Source: a virus
Taxonomy: Duplodnaviria; Caudoviricetes
Length of the DNA stretch: 64,000 bases
Virus record (IMG/VR): IMGVR_UViG_3300012016_000004
Span: 8,009-72,008 of that record
Reading direction: 5' to 3' (one strand)
This document shows positions 7,438 to 53,091 of this stretch, piece by piece; position 1 is the first letter of the stretch; every line of letters begins with the position of its first letter. Under the pieces are notes generated by a model. That model did not search any database, was not told where the DNA came from, and saw nothing but the letters and a program-made list of their open reading frames with translations. The position numbers and the translations under genes are program-made.

Positions 7438-7541
7438 TGGTCGCTCCGGGAGGACTCGAACCCCCGACCAAATCATCATCGGCGAAGTGGATTCCATGGA
7501 AAACCGACGATGCAAAGCTCTACCTACTGAGCTACGGAGCG
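7438..7541 (-). ncRNA. tRNA-like RNA (104 nt) with encoded CCA and an enlarged anticodon arm
   Basis: Acceptor CGCTCCG/CGGAGCG+ACCA; D-arm GCTC-AGTAGGTA-GAGC; T-arm GGGGG-TTCGAGT-CCTCC; variable loop TGGTC; about 28 extra nt where the anticodon arm should be. Confidence 0.75.
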
Positions 7542-25757: not shown

Positions 25758-26984
25758 CTATCGGACGATTCCTCGATACAGATAGTCGCGCAGCTCCGGC
25801 AAGGTCATCTTTCCGATGCCAAGGTAGTCAAGGCTGTACTTCGATGTGGCTCTGAGGTCTTTCTCATGGAAGGCAGAACCAATGACGATCATCGAATCAA
25901 TGACCGGAGTTGGAACGCCGAACTTCGCGCCCAGCTCGCTGTAAATCTTGCATCCGACCGGAATGTCCTCCGTGATGTAACGGTGGTTGATATTGTCCGG
26001 TCCAGTATTGCCTTCATCGCACGGCTTGTCCAGAGGGAACACCACATTGTCCCTTCCGCTGGCATCAAGGCCCATGTACTCTGCCGTGAGGATGCTGCGC
26101 CGGGAGAAGAACTGCTCGTACTCATACTCCGGGTACTTGATACCGATAGCATCGGCAATAGCGCACTCCTCTTTGTAGAACCGGTACTGTGTTCTGCAGA
26201 TGGAAGGGCAAAGGCCATGCGAGTACATGGAATAGCTGCCGGGGGCATTCCCGTACACTTCCCAATTCTCCATGCTTGAAACGCCAAGCAATGACGCAGG
26301 GACATGGATAACCGGGTTCACATTGGAGAAACCGATGTCAAGCATCGTATCGCCGACCACCGGACCGTCCCCCTTTGTCACAGACTCCATGCACGGTAGA
26401 TAGTCCACGGAATCCATGAACGTTGCAATGTCCGTCATCGGAAGGCAAGCACCGCGAAGACTGATGGCCCGATACTTAACACCAACATGGTTGGTCCAGA
26501 ATCCGGCCACCTTCTCTATCCTCGTGCCGTAAGGAGCGGAAGACCATCCTCCAACGATAACATCCTTTGTACAACCGGCTTCACGCATCAGTTTCCTGAG
26601 CAGCAAGCTCGCGTAGTTGTCCGGGAACGTGTGGATAATCATTCCGTCCTCCAGCAGCGGGACGAGTTTCCGCAGGTAGTCTTCGTGGGCAAGCGCAGGG
26701 ACAGAGATGAGTATGAGCTTTGCTCCTCTCACCGCCTCGGCCATGTCGTTCGTAACGACATCAAGAAATGCACGGCCAGAACGTTCGAATCCATACAGAT
26801 TGCGCTGGATACCGTCAAGCAGGATGCCGGTGCGCTCTACATACTGGATAGACTTCGGGCTACGCGAGTACAGACGGACCTCGCGGCCGGCCAGCTTGCA
26901 GTCAGCAGCGAGTGTCTTTCCGACGGCGCCACCACCGAGTACGGCGATGGGGCAGTCTTTCAGATAGGTTAAATTCTTCATCAT
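25758..26984 (-). CDS. NAD(P)-dependent opine (octopine/nopaline) dehydrogenase family protein
   Basis: Rossmann motif IAVLGGGAVGKTLAA; NVNPVIHVP and HRYITEDIPVG...TPVIDSMI, typical of the opine dehydrogenase C-terminal domain. Confidence 0.85.
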   Translation of the reverse strand: MMKNLTYLKDCPIAVLGGGAVGKTLAADCKLAGREVRLYSRSPKSIQYVERTGILLDGIQRNLYGFERSGRAFLDVVTNDMAEAVRGAKLILISVPALAHEDYLRKLVPLLEDGMIIHTFPDNYASLLLRKLMREAGCTKDVIVGGWSSAPYGTRIEKVAGFWTNHVGVKYRAISLRGACLPMTDIATFMDSVDYLPCMESVTKGDGPVVGDTMLDIGFSNVNPVIHVPASLLGVSSMENWEVYGNAPGSYSMYSHGLCPSICRTQYRFYKEECAIADAIGIKYPEYEYEQFFSRRSILTAEYMGLDASGRDNVVFPLDKPCDEGNTGPDNINHRYITEDIPVGCKIYSELGAKFGVPTPVIDSMIVIGSAFHEKDLRATSKYSLDYLGIGKMTLPELRDYLYRGIVR

Positions 26985-27364: not shown

Positions 27365-28216
27365 CTATTTTGTTGCGGTCTCAACGACCTTGCGAATAAA
27401 TTCATCATATTCTATCCCGGCGCATTCTTTGGCGCAACCGGCCAGGTGGTCCGTGGCGCCGAGACATGGGTACAGATTGAGGTCAATGAGCACGTAGTCT
27501 CCGTCCAGTGTCTGACGGAAGTCTATTCTCATGTATCTCTTGGCGCCGACCGCCCAGAAAGCGGCCCGTGCATAGCGGATCAGCTTATCATCAATCAGCG
27601 GATGGCAGACATCCACCTCCTTGAACTTGAGTTCGTGAGTGAGGATGCCGGACTTACTCTCATACTCAAGTATGACCGGCCAGCAATCCGGAACGCCAGT
27701 CTTGTAATTGGCTACGAGGCCGACGGTGCAGTCGCGCCCTTCCACAAACTCCTCGATAATGGCATGGTCATTAAGGGTGGTCTCAATCTCCACGACCTTC
27801 TTGCGGATTGCCTCGCGAGACGTGCAGATGGAGTCCTCGTCAATACAGTTGCTATCTTCGCCATGCATCGGCTTGACGAAATAACGGCCACCGTCACAAG
27901 GCTCTATGACGGTTTCTGGGACACGAACTCCGGCCTGCCGGAGCAAACCCTTACTGATTGCCTTATCGTGCGTCAGATGCACCGTTTCCCGGCTTTCTGC
28001 CGTAGTGTATGCGCACGTCGCAACAAGCTTGTCAATGATGGTGCGGTTCCTGGTCTGAACGAGAATCCTATCGCTGGGACAGATATAGTGAAAATCATCG
28101 TCCTCCGTGGCGAAGATTCTCTTGATATTGGAGCCGAACACCCTTTCAAGGTGGGCATACCTTTCGTCCGGCATGAAGGCGCTTTCCTCGCGCCTGGTGG
28201 TTACAACGTAAATCAT
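27365..28216 (-). CDS. ATP-grasp ligase (D-Ala-D-Ala-ligase-like C-terminal domain)
   Basis: HDKAISKGLL..AGVRVP, FVKP, IEEFVEGRD, RIDFR...DLNLYP. Confidence 0.8.
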   Translation of the reverse strand: MIYVVTTRREESAFMPDERYAHLERVFGSNIKRIFATEDDDFHYICPSDRILVQTRNRTIIDKLVATCAYTTAESRETVHLTHDKAISKGLLRQAGVRVPETVIEPCDGGRYFVKPMHGEDSNCIDEDSICTSREAIRKKVVEIETTLNDHAIIEEFVEGRDCTVGLVANYKTGVPDCWPVILEYESKSGILTHELKFKEVDVCHPLIDDKLIRYARAAFWAVGAKRYMRIDFRQTLDGDYVLIDLNLYPCLGATDHLAGCAKECAGIEYDEFIRKVVETATK

Positions 28217-28224
28217 ACTGATAC

Positions 28225-28956
28225 CTATTTCTTTCCCGCTGATTCAAAAGCCGTCATACTATCTCCTATTTGCATCAGAGCCAGCTCCAGAATCTTCGAG
28301 AATATGATGTTTGAGGATTTGATTTCGAGCTTCTGATTTATCTCCTTGGAGAGCTTGAGATACAGCTCCTCGTTCGGCTCGTTCTCGGCCATGACAACGA
28401 CATCGCTTTTCTTGATAGCCTCACGCAACTCCCCGACCAGTTCCTCGAAATACTGCATGGCCTTGTTATACAGAACAAGCGTGACCGTGAAGGTCTCCTT
28501 CTCCAGAGGGGATGCGATGGAACCGACATCAATGTTGCCGATTTCGTCAATGTTGATGTGGGCGAACTTCTTGAAGTCAACACTCGAAATGCTTTCGAAC
28601 AATTTCTTCAAGATGCTCTTGTTGTCTGTCCCATGCAAGGAGTTGTGGGAAAGCTGGATTGCTACAATCTCATCTTTCGTCAATTCTGACTCCAGGGCAT
28701 AAAGAATGCCTATCTCTGTGAAGCCCTTCTTGCGACATGCATGGACACGATGATGACCACTGATGATAGTAAACCGGCCATTCTCCCGCTTATAGCAGGT
28801 CGGCACCGAACTTAAACCACTCCGGCCGATGTTCTCGACCAACTGATTGAAGTCATCGTCAGACATCATGTTGGCATTCAACTCGGCATCGTCTATCATG
28901 TCGATGGGTACGACCTCGTACTTCCATCGGTTTTCCACTTTATCCTTTTGCTGCAT
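28225..28956 (-). CDS. ParB/Sulfiredoxin N-terminal domain protein
   Basis: ELNANMMSDDDFNQLVENI...FTIISGHHRVHAC. Confidence 0.85.
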   Translation of the reverse strand: MQQKDKVENRWKYEVVPIDMIDDAELNANMMSDDDFNQLVENIGRSGLSSVPTCYKRENGRFTIISGHHRVHACRKKGFTEIGILYALESELTKDEIVAIQLSHNSLHGTDNKSILKKLFESISSVDFKKFAHINIDEIGNIDVGSIASPLEKETFTVTLVLYNKAMQYFEELVGELREAIKKSDVVVMAENEPNEELYLKLSKEINQKLEIKSSNIIFSKILELALMQIGDSMTAFESAGKK

Positions 28957-30997
28957 CGTTGACAGATTTTAAGTATGTTTTGATGATTTCCTCGTTATCG
29001 GCAAACCGGCCAAGGTGGCCCACATAGAAAAGTGAGTTCGGAGTGCATCTCTCCTTCACCTTGTTGTACAGACCACGGTACTTCATGGACACCGGCTTCT
29101 TCGTATAGGCAATAGTGAAGACTGACTCCGCTTCCATGCGATTGAAACGGGACAGAATCTTCTTTACCTCCTTTGACAGAAGGCACATCAGCACCAGGCG
29201 GGACAGCCGGGGAACGGCATTGTTCGTGGCGAAATCACAGAGCTGCTCCATGTCATATTCCTTCGCCGGCGATTTGGTGAAGCCAAAACCACCAAGCAGA
29301 TAGTCTCCGTACATCACGACAAAGCTGAGCCTGGGGCTTTGGAATGAGTTGACCTTATACACGAAATGCTCCTGCAGGATTCGGAAGTCAACGGCGCACC
29401 GTCTGATAGACAGCAGCGCGGGGTCATTGATATACAGATCATCCGGAGGCACCTTGTAATCCACCTGGTTCGGAAGCTGGTCGTTCACGATGATGGCAGA
29501 CGTCTTCGGCTTCGGATGGTTGCTATAAAGATACTTCCCGAAATCCTTCGAGCCATGCCCGGTGTCGAACAAGGCAATCTTGTGAAGGTTCATCAGATAC
29601 GGCGTCTCGCTGAACACATAGAAGTTCACATCGTCCGGGACACTCTCTACCAGGCCGTCATACTCCGTTGGCTTGACATCCCAGTCTTCCACTTCGCAGT
29701 TCCTCCGATAGATGCCGAACGTGCGCTTTGAGGTCTTATCTCCGACCAGCTGGAAAAGGATGTTCTTTTCTCCGTTAGCGAGGGCATCATGGACCGTCCC
29801 ACGAACATACCGGCACGAGGTCAGCATGTCGATGTAGAACTGGGCCTGCTCACGCATGTTTGCGATGCTCTCGTGCATCTTCTCTCGGTAAGCGGCCACT
29901 TCATCATCCTTGAACTCGTTCCCGCCTTCTATGACCTTTCTGAGCTTCGTGACGATGAGAAGGAGCGACACCTGGCGCAAAGGCGTGTTGTCATTATACT
30001 CCTCCAACCACGCGATGTCCTTCTTGAATGTCACGGTCATCTGTCCAGTGGCCAGCAGGTACAGCAGGTGGCAGTAATTGTTCTGATTGTAGATGACAAG
30101 CTTCGGCACCTTCTTGAACAGAGCGCTCTCAAAGCCAAACATGTTCGGATTCACGCAGCAAATCTCATCGAGGTTCAAGTCAACGAGCGCCTTGACCATC
30201 TTCTGGTTGCTGTCGATGGCTTTCGCCATGAAGCATTCCTTGGGATGGTACGGATTGCCCATGTAAAGCAGCGGAGGGATGAGAGCCGGCATCTCCTTCG
30301 GCAGCTTCGTAAGCGCCATGAACTCCTCGTAGGAGCGGATGGACTTGAAGTCTTCTTCGGTGTGATGGATGGCGTATTCAAACATCCGGTAGGCAGACAG
30401 AACACAGTTGAAGGCCAGTTCCGGAGACTGCGTAGCATTGAAGCAGCGGAACTCAACTGTCTTCGTCTTGAACACGGCTGCTATATTGATGAGGAAACGG
30501 ATGTAGCCCTTCTTACTCTGGTTCGACAGAGTGTTTTGCAGGTCTTGCATCGTCTCGCACTTCTTCACACGCTCGTAGTAACTTGGAGTGATGGCAGGCT
30601 GGCAGTTGAACACCTTGTCATTCCAGTCACCCCAGTTGTTATGCTGGTTGATATACGGCGTCAGAAAATACGTGAAGAAGAAAACGCGCTTCAATTCTTC
30701 AACGGTCAGGTCGCCGGCGTAGATGTGGACATGCGTATCGATAGACCACTTGAGCTTGCCACCATGCTTCTTCATCTGGTCGTATAGGTAAACGAGGTCA
30801 TCCCGGTCCTTCCAACAAAGATGAAGCGGAGGGGTGTTCACCTCGCCGCCGTATTGTTTGCTTACCTGGCCGTCGGTATTGAAAATTTGCTCATCTGGGC
30901 TCCATGAATAACCTGCAGGGAGAGAGACGCGCGTTCGATCCACATTGCACATCTCTATCTCCATTCCGAAAGTCCTCTCTGTGATTTTCAGTTCCAT
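28940..30997 (-). CDS. Fusion: amidoligase (COOH-NH2 ligase) + degenerate methylase-like domain + Mom-like GNAT
   Basis: N-terminal FGMEIE / EVNTPPL / THVHI / TVEFR amidoligase motifs; C-terminal FVVMYGDYLLGGFGF...VPRLSRLVL...TIAYTKKPVSMKYRG resembles Mom-type GNATs. The middle domain is the weakest call. Confidence 0.7.
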   Translation of the reverse strand: MELKITERTFGMEIEMCNVDRTRVSLPAGYSWSPDEQIFNTDGQVSKQYGGEVNTPPLHLCWKDRDDLVYLYDQMKKHGGKLKWSIDTHVHIYAGDLTVEELKRVFFFTYFLTPYINQHNNWGDWNDKVFNCQPAITPSYYERVKKCETMQDLQNTLSNQSKKGYIRFLINIAAVFKTKTVEFRCFNATQSPELAFNCVLSAYRMFEYAIHHTEEDFKSIRSYEEFMALTKLPKEMPALIPPLLYMGNPYHPKECFMAKAIDSNQKMVKALVDLNLDEICCVNPNMFGFESALFKKVPKLVIYNQNNYCHLLYLLATGQMTVTFKKDIAWLEEYNDNTPLRQVSLLLIVTKLRKVIEGGNEFKDDEVAAYREKMHESIANMREQAQFYIDMLTSCRYVRGTVHDALANGEKNILFQLVGDKTSKRTFGIYRRNCEVEDWDVKPTEYDGLVESVPDDVNFYVFSETPYLMNLHKIALFDTGHGSKDFGKYLYSNHPKPKTSAIIVNDQLPNQVDYKVPPDDLYINDPALLSIRRCAVDFRILQEHFVYKVNSFQSPRLSFVVMYGDYLLGGFGFTKSPAKEYDMEQLCDFATNNAVPRLSRLVLMCLLSKEVKKILSRFNRMEAESVFTIAYTKKPVSMKYRGLYNKVKERCTPNSLFYVGHLGRFADNEEIIKTYLKSVNDAAKG

Positions 30998-31018
30998 AAT
31001 CCGCAGCTAATAAAAAAG

Positions 31019-31089
31019 AGCGGAGAGACCGATTCGAACAGCCGCCTCGATGCAGGAAGCACCGCGCTCTACCACTGAGCTATCTCCGC
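31019..31089 (-). tRNA. tRNA-Gly(UCC), atypical (U37, G38, two G-U pairs in the T-stem; CCA not encoded)
   Basis: GCGGAGA-TA-GCTC AGTGGTA GAGC-G-CGGTG CTTCCTG CATCG-AGGC-GGCTG TTCGAAT CGGTC-TCTCCGC-T; carries the Gly identity elements C2:G71 and U73. Confidence 0.88.
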
Positions 31090-31116
31090 TTTGGTGGGGA
31101 CTTCATCGTCCCCTAT

Positions 31117-31563
31117 CTAAAACAACCCGTCAAAGAGGCTTGGCTCCTCAAGTACCGGCGTTTGCATCTGTTTTGCCACCTGCTCCTCAATCTGCTTCTG
31201 GTCCGGTTCCCATTCCTTGATTTCAAGTCCGGTCTCCCTGAGCATCCAGTCGGCGAACAGTCTGCGGTGGCAGAAGTCTCCAGGCTTTTCGTAACAGAGC
31301 AGAGCGGCATCCTTGCCTTGCGACATCCTTTCGATGTCAGCGATGACCTGGGCCGGATTCAGATGGCCTACGACATCTCTGTAGTACATCTGAATATACT
31401 GCTCCCTTGTTACCTCATCCTTCATCATATACCGTTTCGGCGCGAGGTACTGGAGATGCAATCCTTGAAAGAACTTCGGCGGCCAAAGTGCGATTCCAAT
31501 CGGGACTATGCCAGCCTCTCTTAATTTGCCCTGGCGGGCGAAATAGGATGTATAAATTTCCAT
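31117..31563 (-). CDS. DUF488-family protein
   Basis: MEIYTSYF...LLCYEKPGDFCHRRLFADW; start moved to 31563. Confidence 0.8.
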   Translation of the reverse strand: MEIYTSYFARQGKLREAGIVPIGIALWPPKFFQGLHLQYLAPKRYMMKDEVTREQYIQMYYRDVVGHLNPAQVIADIERMSQGKDAALLCYEKPGDFCHRRLFADWMLRETGLEIKEWEPDQKQIEEQVAKQMQTPVLEEPSLFDGLF

Positions 31564-31578
31564 TTCCTTTTGTATATG

Positions 31579-31612
31579 CAAATCTACAAATAATTTTCCA
31601 AATAGTTGCAAA
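31579..31612 (-). promoter_or_regulatory. Promoter of the modification/packaging operon
   Basis: -7 TAGATTTG at 31579-31586, with a TTTG at about 31609-31612. Confidence 0.6.
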
Positions 31613-50527: not shown

Positions 50528-52379
50528 CTATTCTTTAATCAGCCTCTCAGCGAAGCTTTCAAGAACACCACGGGCGCCACTAAGCATTCCTTTGAGGTTT
50601 GTAAGGTCTTTCTCGTCTTGCTCAGATTCCGCTTCGACATACATGAGCGAGACATATTGTTCATTGATGACTCTGCGGATTTCCAAGAGTCTATTGACCG
50701 TTTCTTCGTTCTTCATAAACTTTTGAGTTAAGAGGAGGCGTAGCAGAGCCAGGCTGATACGCCCCCTCAAACGAACTACACTTCGATGATGGCGATGTCC
50801 GGGGCAATCTCGCGGATGGCTGTCAGCTGTGCGTCGATTTCCGTGGCCTTGATTTCTTCGATGAGAGCAGCAGCATCCGGAGCGCTGAGAACGCATGTCA
50901 CATCCCGGCCGGAGATTTTCGCAAAGGTCTCGACGTCGATTTCTTCGGGCTTGCCACCCTTGAGCACAGGAATCATGAGCTTGAACGATTCCGGGAGGTT
51001 GGAGTTAACTGTCTGACGGAACTCGTCACCACGATCGCCGTTCTGTTTAATGCTGTTCTGCAGAGAACTGTTCACGGTGGCAGTGAAGTTCATCAGAGTG
51101 GACACAAGCTCCATGCACTGGTTACGGTCGGGGAAGTAGGTTCGGTTCATCTTGATGAACAATCCCAGTTCTGCCGGTTGCCAGACAATAGACGAGTTGT
51201 TGATGCCGAACTCATCGAACTTGGGGTTGGTCTCGATGACACCGGCCACCTGGCCCATCCTATAAGCATCGCGCTCGTTAAAGATGAGATGGATGACACC
51301 TTTGTCGCGGTTCACGAGGATGTGGCAGTCCTTCTGTTCGAACTGACCAGAGTTAACTCTCTTAGAGAGATACTCCTGCACGGCGCCAATCGTGCCTTTG
51401 ATTTCGACAGCCACCGGGGCTTTTTCGTCCAACTGCTTGGGGGCATTGCCTTCGAGCTGTACAACGGTCAACTTGTCTTGACCAGGGGCGCAATGGATTT
51501 CTAATTCTTTTGCCATAACGATTCTGATTTAGCTTGCGATTACACGTGATTCTTTCTGCTCCTCTTTTTCGACCATGTGGATGCTTGGACGGAACAGCTG
51601 TCCCTGCATCTCGTCGGCTGTGGCCTGGCGCATCTCAATCAGATCGCCAAGCGAGTTGTAGAAGCCGGTCTCTCCGGCATCCTGGTCCGTGATGCGATAG
51701 CATTCCTCCGTGACCAGTTCGGCTTTCGCTTTGATGTTGCCTACCAGCTGGGCCTTCTGCTCATAGAGAGGCTTGAGCTTTCCCTTGATTTCTGCGAGCA
51801 TGGCTTTCTTCTCGGCCTCCAACTCGGAGATTTCAATCTCGATGCTGGTAAGGTCCTCTTTCTTGCCCTGCAGCTCCGGAACGGTGTACTGCTTCATGTA
51901 GGTCTTCTTCACTACCTCGTCCGCATTGTCAGAGATGAAGATTTTCCTACGATTGACATCTTGAATGTCTTTTCCTAATGATTTTTCCATAAACTTACTT
52001 TCGTTTTTGAATTGGGTTTCTTTCTGAACTATCTGATTCTCCAGGTCATAGGAGGAGAACGGGGGGGGGTAAATGTCTTCATGAACTTTCATCAATAGTT
52101 CTTACGTTTCTGTTCCTCCTCAAGCAGAGCGAAGAAATTCTCCGCATACTTGCCCGTCAGACCTCCTTTGCACTGGAAATATCCACTCCATGGATAGAAA
52201 TACAATTTCTCAGTTCGGTACATGACCACGAAGTAGTCCAGAGTCTCCTCAATAATCCGGACACCCATCTTGTCCAGACGGCTACGGATATAGGACATGC
52301 GTCCTACCATCTTTTCCCGGCGCCTGGCTCTCCATTCGGACTTGGGAGGGTATCTTTTATGCTTGCGAGTGTGTGGCAT
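50528..52379 (-). CDS. Hypothetical proteins (50528-50716, 50776-51516, 51529-51990, 52092-52379)
   Basis: Contiguous ORFs; start of the third moved to 51990 on the basis of the start-associated motif. Confidence 0.55.
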
Positions 52380-53091
52380 AGTCGCTTACTTTCTTAAATG
52401 TCTTTCCGTTGCTGTATGCCCGTTCAAACACGTCCAGCAGAGATTCGCCTTCCTTTGCAAATCCTTTCTGTTGCAGGTAGGTTATCCTCATCCTGCCGTA
52501 GTCATAGCAGGAAAACGGCATACCGATAACCTCTCCAATGGATACGGGGTCATTCTTTCTGGGCTTGATGACGCCTTTCTTGATGGCTTCAAGTCTTTTC
52601 ACCATGGCATCCTTATACTCGCAGAACTCTGACCAAGCATCGGCTGTCATCCGCTTGAAATCCTCCTCCTTCATCTCATGGGCCGGAAGTTGCTTCGGTT
52701 TCTCTCTGTGGTCTTCCACATACTGACCAATAGCCTCACGGCGCTCCTGGTGCTTGATGTAGCCTTCAACCCAGCGGATCAGACTCTTGTAAGTCAGAAC
52801 GATGTCCTTATCTGTTCCGAGACGGCCCTTCATTCCATTGGAGAAGATGTAGGGAATCTCCTTGTCACGGATTGACTTGTAAACCGGGTCTGTCACGAGT
52901 TCCTGGTACAGAGCAACAGCACATGTACGGACTTCCTCTTTGAAGGCATCCGGCTGCATCTGGCGATGGAGACCGTTCATCACATAGACGGTCATTATGT
53001 CATTGTTCAGCTTTGTCAGAGCTTCGACCTCCGGGATGTCCCGGAGAGGCCGGCCTTCTTCAATCAGCACTTTGATAAACTTCTTGTCCAT
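52357..53091 (-). CDS. Replication-region hypothetical protein
   Basis: 244 aa directly downstream of the initiator gene. Confidence 0.5.
   Translation of the reverse strand: MDKKFIKVLIEEGRPLRDIPEVEALTKLNNDIMTVYVMNGLHRQMQPDAFKEEVRTCAVALYQELVTDPVYKSIRDKEIPYIFSNGMKGRLGTDKDIVLTYKSLIRWVEGYIKHQERREAIGQYVEDHREKPKQLPAHEMKEEDFKRMTADAWSEFCEYKDAMVKRLEAIKKGVIKPRKNDPVSIGEVIGMPFSCYDYGRMRITYLQQKGFAKEGESLLDVFERAYSNGKTFKKVSDYATHSQA

Follow-up and report, generated by a model that had tools for sequence, protein, structure and literature searches.

A phage tRNA-Gly gene paired with a Dam-like/GNAT gene is a candidate glycyl donor withdrawn from decoding

The locus described here raises the question of why a rumen phage of Bacteroidales should encode its own glycine tRNA directly in front of a gene for a protein with a GNAT domain, and whether such a tRNA serves translation or the protein beside it. 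The window, by which we mean the whole 64-kb stretch of DNA that was analysed, is part of a 72,008-base IMG/VR virus record rated 100% complete, and it occurs in sequencing runs from sheep and bovine gut. ARAGORN finds a sole tRNA in it, a minus-strand Gly(tcc) at 31018-31089, and the Rfam model RF00005, whose gathering score is 29, matches 31019-31089 with 52.1 bits (E 2.7e-08); a second tRNA-like gene, at 7441-7541, is called by ARAGORN as tRNA-Glu when introns are allowed, which is unconvincing.

In standard numbering, the acceptor end of the window tRNA has G1-C72, C2-G71, G3-C70 and U73, and the set of positions needed by bacterial GlyRS (U73, G1-C72, C2-G71, C35 and C36; PMC9976931) is complete. 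The D loop keeps G18G19, the anticodon stem is CGGUG/CAUCG, the T stem is formed by G49-C65, G50-U64, C51-G63, U52-G62 and G53-C61, and the T loop is a canonical UUCGAAU; CCA is not encoded by the gene. The anticodon loop, CUUCCUG, reads C32 U33 U34 C35 C36 U37 G38, so that two elongator-type features, U33 and the 7-nt loop, are both present and a third, a purine at 37, is absent, with U37 in the window tRNA and in all five relatives of its clade. From the 3′ end of the tRNA (31019) there are 21 nt to the ATG, at 30997, of a 685-aa ORF. A first-pass annotation of this DNA had listed the GlyRS identity elements, the CU-UCC-UG loop, the T-stem wobbles and the 21-nt spacing, and all of these are present when read directly; to them we add that C32 and G38 are Watson-Crick pairable, shrinking the loop to 5 nt, a feature absent from that annotation.

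The 685-aa protein, the presumed user of the window tRNA, matches the Pfam families Amidoligase_2, Dam-like and GNAT-phage-like at E 1.5e-13, 2.8e-33 and 1.7e-29, respectively, and has 734 homologues (Table 1). In its Dam-like domain the DPPY/NPPY of adenine methylases is reduced to an NPY remnant at residue 248, and an SMKYR motif is invariant in the alignment of its GNAT-phage-like domain. The DUF488 gene, which likely starts at 31563, lies upstream of the tRNA in relatives too, in unchanged order; a literature search on the function of DUF488 yielded nothing useful. The TAGATTTG box is likely, from its sequence and position, to be the putative operon promoter. Downstream of the fusion gene come the ParB-like, ATP-grasp, small-terminase-like and opine-dehydrogenase-like genes and then the large terminase. 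Prophage relatives are found in Paludibacteraceae, Prevotella, Alistipes, Muribaculaceae and other Bacteroidota. In four runs of RNA libraries from ruminant gut, short contigs lie to either side of the tRNA: those in the DUF488 gene begin at about 31126-31133 and run upward, and those over the 5′ part of the fusion gene reach as far as 31024; no contig on or bridging the window tRNA occurs in these four runs, which are assembled, of low depth and possibly DNA-containing.

Table 1. Features of the tRNA-Gly locus, in positions of the 64-kb window
Feature	Positions	Strand	Basis or remark
tRNA-Gly(UCC), positions 1-73	31019..31089	(-)	ARAGORN and Rfam RF00005
Three-domain protein of 685 aa (Amidoligase_2, Dam-like, GNAT-phage-like)	28940..30997	(-)	Pfam, PHROG 2443
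Amidoligase_2 domain, residues 44-189	30431..30868	(-)	PF12224
Dam-like domain, residues 238-407	29777..30286	(-)	PF22556 and PF22555
GNAT-phage-like domain, residues 537-677	28967..29389	(-)	PF22559, 36-sequence alignment, AF2 model
DUF488-N3a gene, 148 aa from ATG at 31563	31117..31563	(-)	Directly upstream of the tRNA
TAGATTTG, Bacteroidota-type -7 box (putative)	31579..31586	(-)	16 nt upstream of the DUF488 start; read from sequence
G+C-rich hairpin without a U run	31096..31113	(-)	In the gap that separates the DUF488 stop codon from the 5′ end of the tRNA
ParB-like gene, overlapping the end of the fusion gene	28225..28956	(-)	PHROG 7405, ParB families
ATP-grasp (D-Ala-D-Ala ligase-like) gene, same operon	27365..28216	(-)	Conserved in relatives
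Opine-dehydrogenase-like gene	25758..26984	(-)	

The closest relatives, at 83-86% protein identity, keep the order of DUF488 gene, tRNA and fusion gene. Their tRNAs have an identical acceptor stem, GCGGAGA/UCUCCGC with U73, and the anticodon loops of the clade are CUUCCUG, CAUCCUG (with A33, seen in relatives at 84-86% protein identity) and CUGCCUG (anticodon GCC), so that only positions 33 and 34 vary, and C32, C35, C36, U37 and G38 are the same throughout. Conservation of U37 and G38 beside close homologues, which the first-pass annotation had put forward as a check on its reading, is therefore found in the window clade. The T stems carry compensatory substitutions (GGCUG/CGGUC, GGUCG/CGGCC and GGUAG/CUACC). 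The G50-U64 and U52-G62 wobbles, which had been taken for hallmarks, are lost in clade relatives and cannot serve as lasting ones; what recurs is a weak 51-63 pair, always C-G, U-G or U-A. At two homologues of 73% identity, L001 and L086, the tRNA is absent: in L001 the DUF488 stop codon lies 2 nt from the start of the fusion gene, and L086 has an intergenic space of only about 35 nt, in which ARAGORN detects no tRNA. From these two loci we conclude that the tRNA is accessory and dispensable, not a requirement. It had been said beforehand that homologous loci carrying no tRNA would speak against a reserved tRNA; this is the case at these two loci. In the wider family, a glycine-identity tRNA lies upstream in 104 of 165 loci with a PF22559 homologue.

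These 165 loci come from viral contigs and from GTDB genomes, one for each species, and were searched over a span of 3-5 kb upstream. We assigned to the glycine-identity class those tRNAs with a GCG...CGC acceptor stem, U73 and C35C36, a definition which makes invariance at these positions partly circular. The general Rfam tRNA model misses the most divergent copies (the UGC-T-loop class and the tRNA of mycobacteriophage Jeon), and the counts therefore rest on ARAGORN and our own parsing. No glycine-identity tRNA lies within the flanks of the other 61 loci, and all but one of the unique glycine-identity tRNAs share the strand of the PF22559 gene. The linked loci belong to Bacteroidota prophages (24-46% protein identity), Streptomyces, Chloroflexi, Clostridia and mycobacteriophages. 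Bacteroidales phages at 45-47% identity often have two tandem tRNA-Gly genes with DUF488 upstream, placed either directly before the fusion gene or parted from it by the opine-dehydrogenase-like gene only. In the cultured mycobacteriophages Jeon and PR, a tRNA-Gly(UCC) with the loop CUUCCAG abuts gp68/ORF71, which encodes Dam-like and GNAT domains without the amidoligase, the DPPY adenine pocket being reduced to a PPF remnant in the Dam-like domain of Jeon gp68; in Streptomyces a tRNA-Gly with the loop CCCCCGG ends at the start of a gene for a two-domain, Dam-like and GNAT protein. The Dam-like (PF22555/PF22556) and GNAT-phage-like (PF22559) domains are thus joined in one protein in the window, in Jeon gp68 and in the Streptomyces gene, and because the pairing holds with two-domain proteins, the link of the tRNA is to the Dam-like/GNAT part and not to the amidoligase, ATP-grasp or opine dehydrogenase. 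The M. smegmatis phages Jeon, Taptic and PR, all of them cultured, carry the pair of tRNA and gene; Jeon gp69 is in a position equal to that of the window ParB-like gene, with only a faint ParB_N match.

The fusion gene had been described as Mom-like. As a statement of family this fails: Mu Mom (from AF083977) matches PF25680 alone and the window domain matches PF22559 alone, the GNAT fold being all that they share. Searches of PDB sequences with phmmer and with a 13-sequence profile gave nothing relevant, and hhalign of Mu Mom against two alignments of the window-domain family was not significant (probability <1%). With no similarity by Pfam, phmmer, profile or hhalign, sequence kinship of the window GNAT to Mom is rejected. 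The AlphaFold2 model of residues 480-685, made from the 36-sequence alignment, has a GNAT fold (mean pLDDT 88.5), against which Foldseek places the Mom crystal structure 8bv8 at rank 5-6 and VIA-align puts it first (Z 10.6, 135 residues, rmsd 3.1 A); by VIA-align, dozens of ordinary acetyltransferases come within one Z unit of 8bv8, so that the lead of Mom among the structural matches is only nominal. Mom is a functional precedent for the window GNAT, not a family assignment. It moves glycine from Gly-tRNA-Gly onto N6 of adenine in double-stranded DNA (Silva et al., Nat Commun 2026, PMC13219725; preprint 10.1101/2023.03.24.534169), the glycyl adduct then rearranging to carbamoylmethyl-adenine, and all three E. 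coli tRNA-Gly isoacceptors serve it (PMC13219725). We found no mention of phage-encoded tRNAs in the available portions of that paper or of its preprint, and no tRNA near Mom in 44 Mu-like loci, all from close Mu relatives with Mom at 85-99% identity. The Mom of phage Mu (PF25680; PDB 8bv8) is, like the window protein, a phage GNAT-fold enzyme; the window GNAT differs in being fused to a Dam-like domain and, in the window phage, to an amidoligase, and whereas Mom draws on host isoacceptors, the window phage encodes its own tRNA-Gly.

We know of no dedicated tRNA gene beside a GNAT-fold aminoacyl transferase, except those that go with the staphylococcal Fem enzymes. Staphylococcal non-proteogenic tRNA-Gly has an extra C-G38 pair and weak EF-Tu pairs, and its three forms, NP1-NP3, are without G18G19 and U55 (T loop UGC or UGU); FmhB prefers NP1-NP3, and EF-Tu inhibits or starves FmhB by sequestering proteogenic Gly-tRNA (PMC13443448, PMC7826273). 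The G38 and the weak T stems of these tRNAs, which the first-pass annotation had named, are confirmed by the same two papers; a pyrimidine at 37, named with them, was not found in the literature on staphylococcal non-proteogenic tRNAs that we searched. All four of the staphylococcal traits, as published, occur within the phage tRNA-Gly family, and the window copy has two of the four (the C32-G38 pair and the weak T stem), differing from the NP tRNAs in keeping G18G19, U55 and UUCGAAU. In both systems a tRNA of glycine identity, seemingly chargeable yet unfit for translation, would stand beside a GNAT-fold aminoacyl transferase, as we infer for the phage; the phage tRNA is virus-encoded and beside a presumed DNA-modifying enzyme, the staphylococcal tRNA goes with a cell-wall enzyme, and the phage family varies much more at positions 33 and 34 than do the three staphylococcal genes. 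Since the NP lineage is restricted to staphylococci (PMC7826273) and the window tRNA is phage-borne in Bacteroidales, descent of the one from the other is unlikely, and we regard the window tRNA as an analogue whose resemblance is convergent. The GNAT-fold enzymes FemX, MurM, MprF, L/F-transferase and PacB also use charged tRNA as an activated amino-acid donor outside the ribosome (PMC13219725, Fig. 5); their acceptors are peptidoglycan precursors, lipids, proteins and nucleoside antibiotics, not DNA.

If the phage tRNAs have left decoding, positions read by GlyRS might be expected to persist where those read by the ribosome alone drift, and the family agrees with this. The GlyRS identity positions are invariant in 61 aligned relatives, which were themselves selected on those positions. 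Among 64 unique phage tRNA-Gly sequences the anticodon loop has 7 nt in 54, 6 nt in nine and 8 nt in one; U33 is kept in 37 of the 54 seven-nt loops, with A in eight, C in seven and G in two, and position 34 in these loops is A in 15, U in 22, C in 14 and G in three. A pyrimidine at 37 is found in six of the 64, one copy has the anticodon ACG and another has UCU on a glycine-type acceptor stem. Of 52 family loops, 31 have C-G, G-C or A-U at 32-38, pairings that the true non-Gly tRNAs of these loci never show. G55 replaces U55 in 17 of the 64 and G18G19 is absent in 19, both losses being exemplified by L004 and L016, and 51-63 is G-C in just eight. As a host control we took the 28 distinct tRNAs of one genome, that of Prevotella vespertina: all 28 have a purine at 37, the norm that the first-pass annotation had invoked, and U33 as well, U37 is never seen, C32-G38 occurs once, and the sole UGC T loop is that of a prophage's own tRNA-Gly. 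The sequences thus suggest, with the partial circularity that comes from selecting on those positions, that what GlyRS requires is retained and what only the ribosome requires drifts.

Affinity for EF-Tu was calculated from the T stem with the additive model of Schrader and Uhlenbeck (Table 2 of PMC3239215); Table 3 of that paper gave, by back-calculation, a reference value of -10.1 kcal/mol. The window tRNA has a calculated value of -8.6 kcal/mol, the least secure of our figures on account of the non-additive G50-U64, such T stems being known as non-additive in a GC/GU/GC context (PMC3239215). Its clade relatives come to -9.5 kcal/mol, and the family has a median of -9.5 kcal/mol (range -8.0 to -10.7; n = 49 computable). 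The three host tRNA-Gly of P. vespertina, each with G49-U65, C50-G64 and G51-C63, come to -11.2 kcal/mol, and the two prophage tRNA-Gly of the same genome to -9.4 and -9.5 kcal/mol. For comparison, the bacterial mean for tRNA-Gly(UCC) is -10.8 kcal/mol and the staphylococcal non-proteogenic tRNA is at -9.5 kcal/mol (PMC3239215). Binding of the phage tRNAs to EF-Tu is thus predicted by the model to be about 1.7-2.6 kcal/mol weaker than that of host tRNA-Gly.

We propose that the window tRNA is probably a phage glycyl carrier withdrawn from decoding, and the donor for the downstream GNAT, a reading drawn from its linkage to that gene, the GNAT fold, the fusion to a Dam-like domain and the precedent of Mom. 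A late operon transcript would carry DUF488, tRNA and fusion gene together; host RNase P and a 3′ end-processing nuclease would excise the tRNA, a host enzyme would add CCA, and host GlyRS would charge it via G1-C72, C2-G71, U73, C35 and C36, a reliance on host synthetases and processing that it would share with phage tRNAs in general. The C32-G38 pair, with U37, would close the anticodon loop, and the weak T-stem pairs would reduce EF-Tu binding, so that the Gly-tRNA would be free and not sequestered for translation. The GNAT-phage-like domain of the downstream protein could then accept the glycyl group, and an adenine flipped out and held by the fused Dam-like domain could be glycylated at N6, in the manner of Mu Mom with host Gly-tRNA; further enzymes of the window phage (amidoligase, ATP-grasp, opine-dehydrogenase-like) may extend the adduct. 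The view of the first-pass annotation, that the tRNA is chargeable, avoids EF-Tu and the ribosome and is reserved for the adjacent GNAT, is supported as far as sequence analysis reaches, by the cross-phylum pairing, the kept cloverleaf and GlyRS elements, the relaxed decoding features and the weak predicted EF-Tu affinity.

The tRNA might instead enlarge the Gly-tRNA pool of late infection for translation and the GNAT alike, without being excluded from the ribosome. Judged from its sequence, the window copy is the most canonical-looking of the phage tRNA-Gly family, and with its U33, 7-nt loop, G18G19 and canonical UUCGAAU T loop, and 52 bits on the general tRNA model, it may do some decoding of GGA/GGG; such dual use would also agree with the acceptance by Mom of all three E. 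coli isoacceptors and with the dispensability of the tRNA in the 73%-identity relatives. However, close relatives have A33 or the anticodon GCC with the rest unchanged, U37 and the pairable C32-G38 are conserved where the 28 host-type tRNAs have only a single C32-G38, and EF-Tu binding is predicted to be 2.6 kcal/mol below that of host tRNA-Gly, all of which makes a shared pool unlikely in our judgement.

Two explanations are usual for phage tRNAs, codon supply and evasion of host tRNA nucleases, and neither works unless the tRNA decodes; compared with phage tRNAs in general, the PF22559-linked family has decoding-incompatible variants, one isotype and one enzyme family. As to escape, phage tRNAs with altered anticodon loops do evade nucleases, and the window tRNA might be a decoy for, or a version resistant to, host toxins or nucleases that target tRNA-Gly (the GNAT toxins TacT and AtaT, FaRel2, or anticodon nucleases). 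In tRNA-Gly, such toxins read either the acceptor stem or U73 and G71 (PMC9976931, PMC11559606), and these elements exactly match what the phage tRNA-Gly family conserves. A counter-defence role is nonetheless improbable, for it leaves unexplained the strict linkage and co-orientation with Dam-like/GNAT genes, and a resistant replacement would have to decode, which A33, ACC and 6-nt loops forbid.

Codon supply, with the GNAT adjacent by chance or through a tRNA hot spot, finds some agreement in those few lineages that have Met, Asn, Lys, Arg, Ser and Cys tRNAs at the corresponding site, either instead of tRNA-Gly or in mixed clusters. We consider it very improbable, since glycine-identity tRNAs make up 151 of the 189 tRNAs in the PF22559 loci (80%), the linkage persists across phyla and protein architectures, and the anticodon ACC, the non-U33 and the 6-nt loops could not serve decoding. 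The window phage, moreover, has just one other tRNA-like gene; near-complete relatives of 65-76 kb likewise have, besides these tRNAs, only one conserved tRNA-like gene, of 101-108 nt.

The phage tRNA-Gly family consists, on the evidence of its alignment, of functional RNAs and not of pseudogenes: in 61 distinct aligned tRNAs, standard pairs make up 96.4% of cells, both sides have changed in 16 of 21 pairs, and the covariation score is 0.74, against 0.20 in shuffles (reached by 0 of 500) and at most 0.18 with slid partners. That the window tRNA is a relic, an attP-type tRNA copy or a decaying functionless pseudogene, is scarcely credible, even though several relatives are proviruses and odd anticodons occur (one ACG, and one UCU on a glycine-type acceptor stem), and is rejected on the strong compensatory covariation in all four helices and on a place inside the operon, not beside an integrase or at a prophage end, the phage sequence differing besides from host tRNA-Gly.

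The reading of the window tRNA as a glycyl carrier outside translation brings together two things that were known separately, the tRNA-Gly that staphylococci keep for the cell wall and the host Gly-tRNA that Mu Mom takes for DNA. A full-text literature search found no description of a phage-encoded non-decoding tRNA-Gly tied to DNA modification, and what is new here, as far as we have found, is the proposed link of a non-proteogenic tRNA to tRNA-dependent DNA modification. We would suggest more tentatively, and with considerable doubt, that PF22559 Dam-like/GNAT proteins and a co-encoded, non-decoding, EF-Tu-escaping tRNA-Gly form an old, cross-phylum class of DNA aminoacylation apart from Mom, in which the glycyl-adenine is enlarged in Bacteroidales phages, by amidoligase, ATP-grasp and opine-dehydrogenase-like enzymes, into a chemically undescribed hypermodification.

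If the proposed carrier role is true, this would be a second, independent origin of non-proteogenic tRNAs and, as far as we have found, the first in a virus, and some phage tRNA genes would not be about translation. A co-substrate is thereby predicted for a widespread family of enzymes without known function, whose members occur in gut Bacteroidales phages, Streptomyces prophages and mycobacteriophages, and the natural variation of the tRNA family would show which positions of a tRNA are for GlyRS and the transferase and which for the ribosome only. Viruses, it would appear, encode private glycine donors with which to disguise their DNA chemically.

Where tRNA-Gly genes stand as a tandem pair at loci carrying a PF22559 homologue, the loops of the second copy look canonical and its anticodon is CCC or ACC (L004:4880-4954, L034:3826-3899, L064:3826-3899, L068:3821-3894 and similar copies). 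At 51-63, A faces C, A or G and in no copy U; position 5-68 is often mismatched, as G-G or A-G. A51 without U63 would be an alternative route to a spoiled EF-Tu-contacting pair. Two other copies (L012:4802-4875 and L013:3903-3975) have a glycine-type acceptor stem with U73 present, and have lost C36 or C35C36, their anticodons being ACG and UCU; this may reflect decay or a shifted identity.

At six loci (L062, L063, L066, L073, L115 and L026) a further odd tRNA family occurs some 1.1-1.6 kb ahead of the fusion gene, on its upstream side. Its members share the arm CCCGA/UCGGG, and have the loops CGGUUAA, UCGCUAA, UAGAUAA and UAGCUAA, with a non-U at position 33 and a variable anticodon of the form G-N-U. 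They are found in lineages without tRNA-Gly, or in those with Met and Asn tRNAs beside tRNA-Gly.

Mycobacterium phage PR shares with phage Jeon a tRNA-Gly(UCC), which in PR precedes ORF71, and the examined part of record AP018463.1 lists no tRNA feature at this site. In phage Jeon the tRNA overlaps the annotated start of gene 68 by 18 nt, and the true start of that gene is therefore probably further downstream.

Around the tRNA-Gly(UCC) of the window itself, RNA-library contigs from at least two studies end at 31024 and at 31126-31133, flanking the tRNA and the G+C-rich hairpin; these ends would fit a longer transcript from which the tRNA is cut out, and are too weak to count as evidence of this.

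The window also holds a second tRNA-like gene, in which the acceptor, D and T arms are all normal and the 17-nt anticodon arm is replaced by a 45-nt segment, whose 9-bp stem carries a loop of 21 nt that includes UUCCAUGGAA. The gene is kept among related phage genomes, in copies of 101-108 nt; ARAGORN, run with introns allowed, gave an unconvincing Glu call.

Coordinates of the tRNA, tRNA-like and opine-dehydrogenase-like genes
Feature	Location	Strand	Remark
Second tRNA-like gene	window 7441-7541	(-)	Rfam, 41.9 bits
Copy of second tRNA-like gene	related genome G001 27437-27544		
Copy of second tRNA-like gene	related genome G003 52498-52606		
Copy of second tRNA-like gene	related genome G007 26408-26515		
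Opine-dehydrogenase-like gene	window 25758-26984	(-)	compared with L034:3929-4996
tRNA-Gly(UCC), phage PR	L227:829-900 (AP018463.1, about 51199-51270)		

In the window phage the opine-dehydrogenase-like gene has the small terminase gene on one side and the large terminase gene on the other. Among the 45-47%-identity relatives its neighbours are the tRNAs and the fusion gene, between which it lies; the 83-86% relatives carry it upstream of DUF488. Its position shifts, yet it remains associated with the module.
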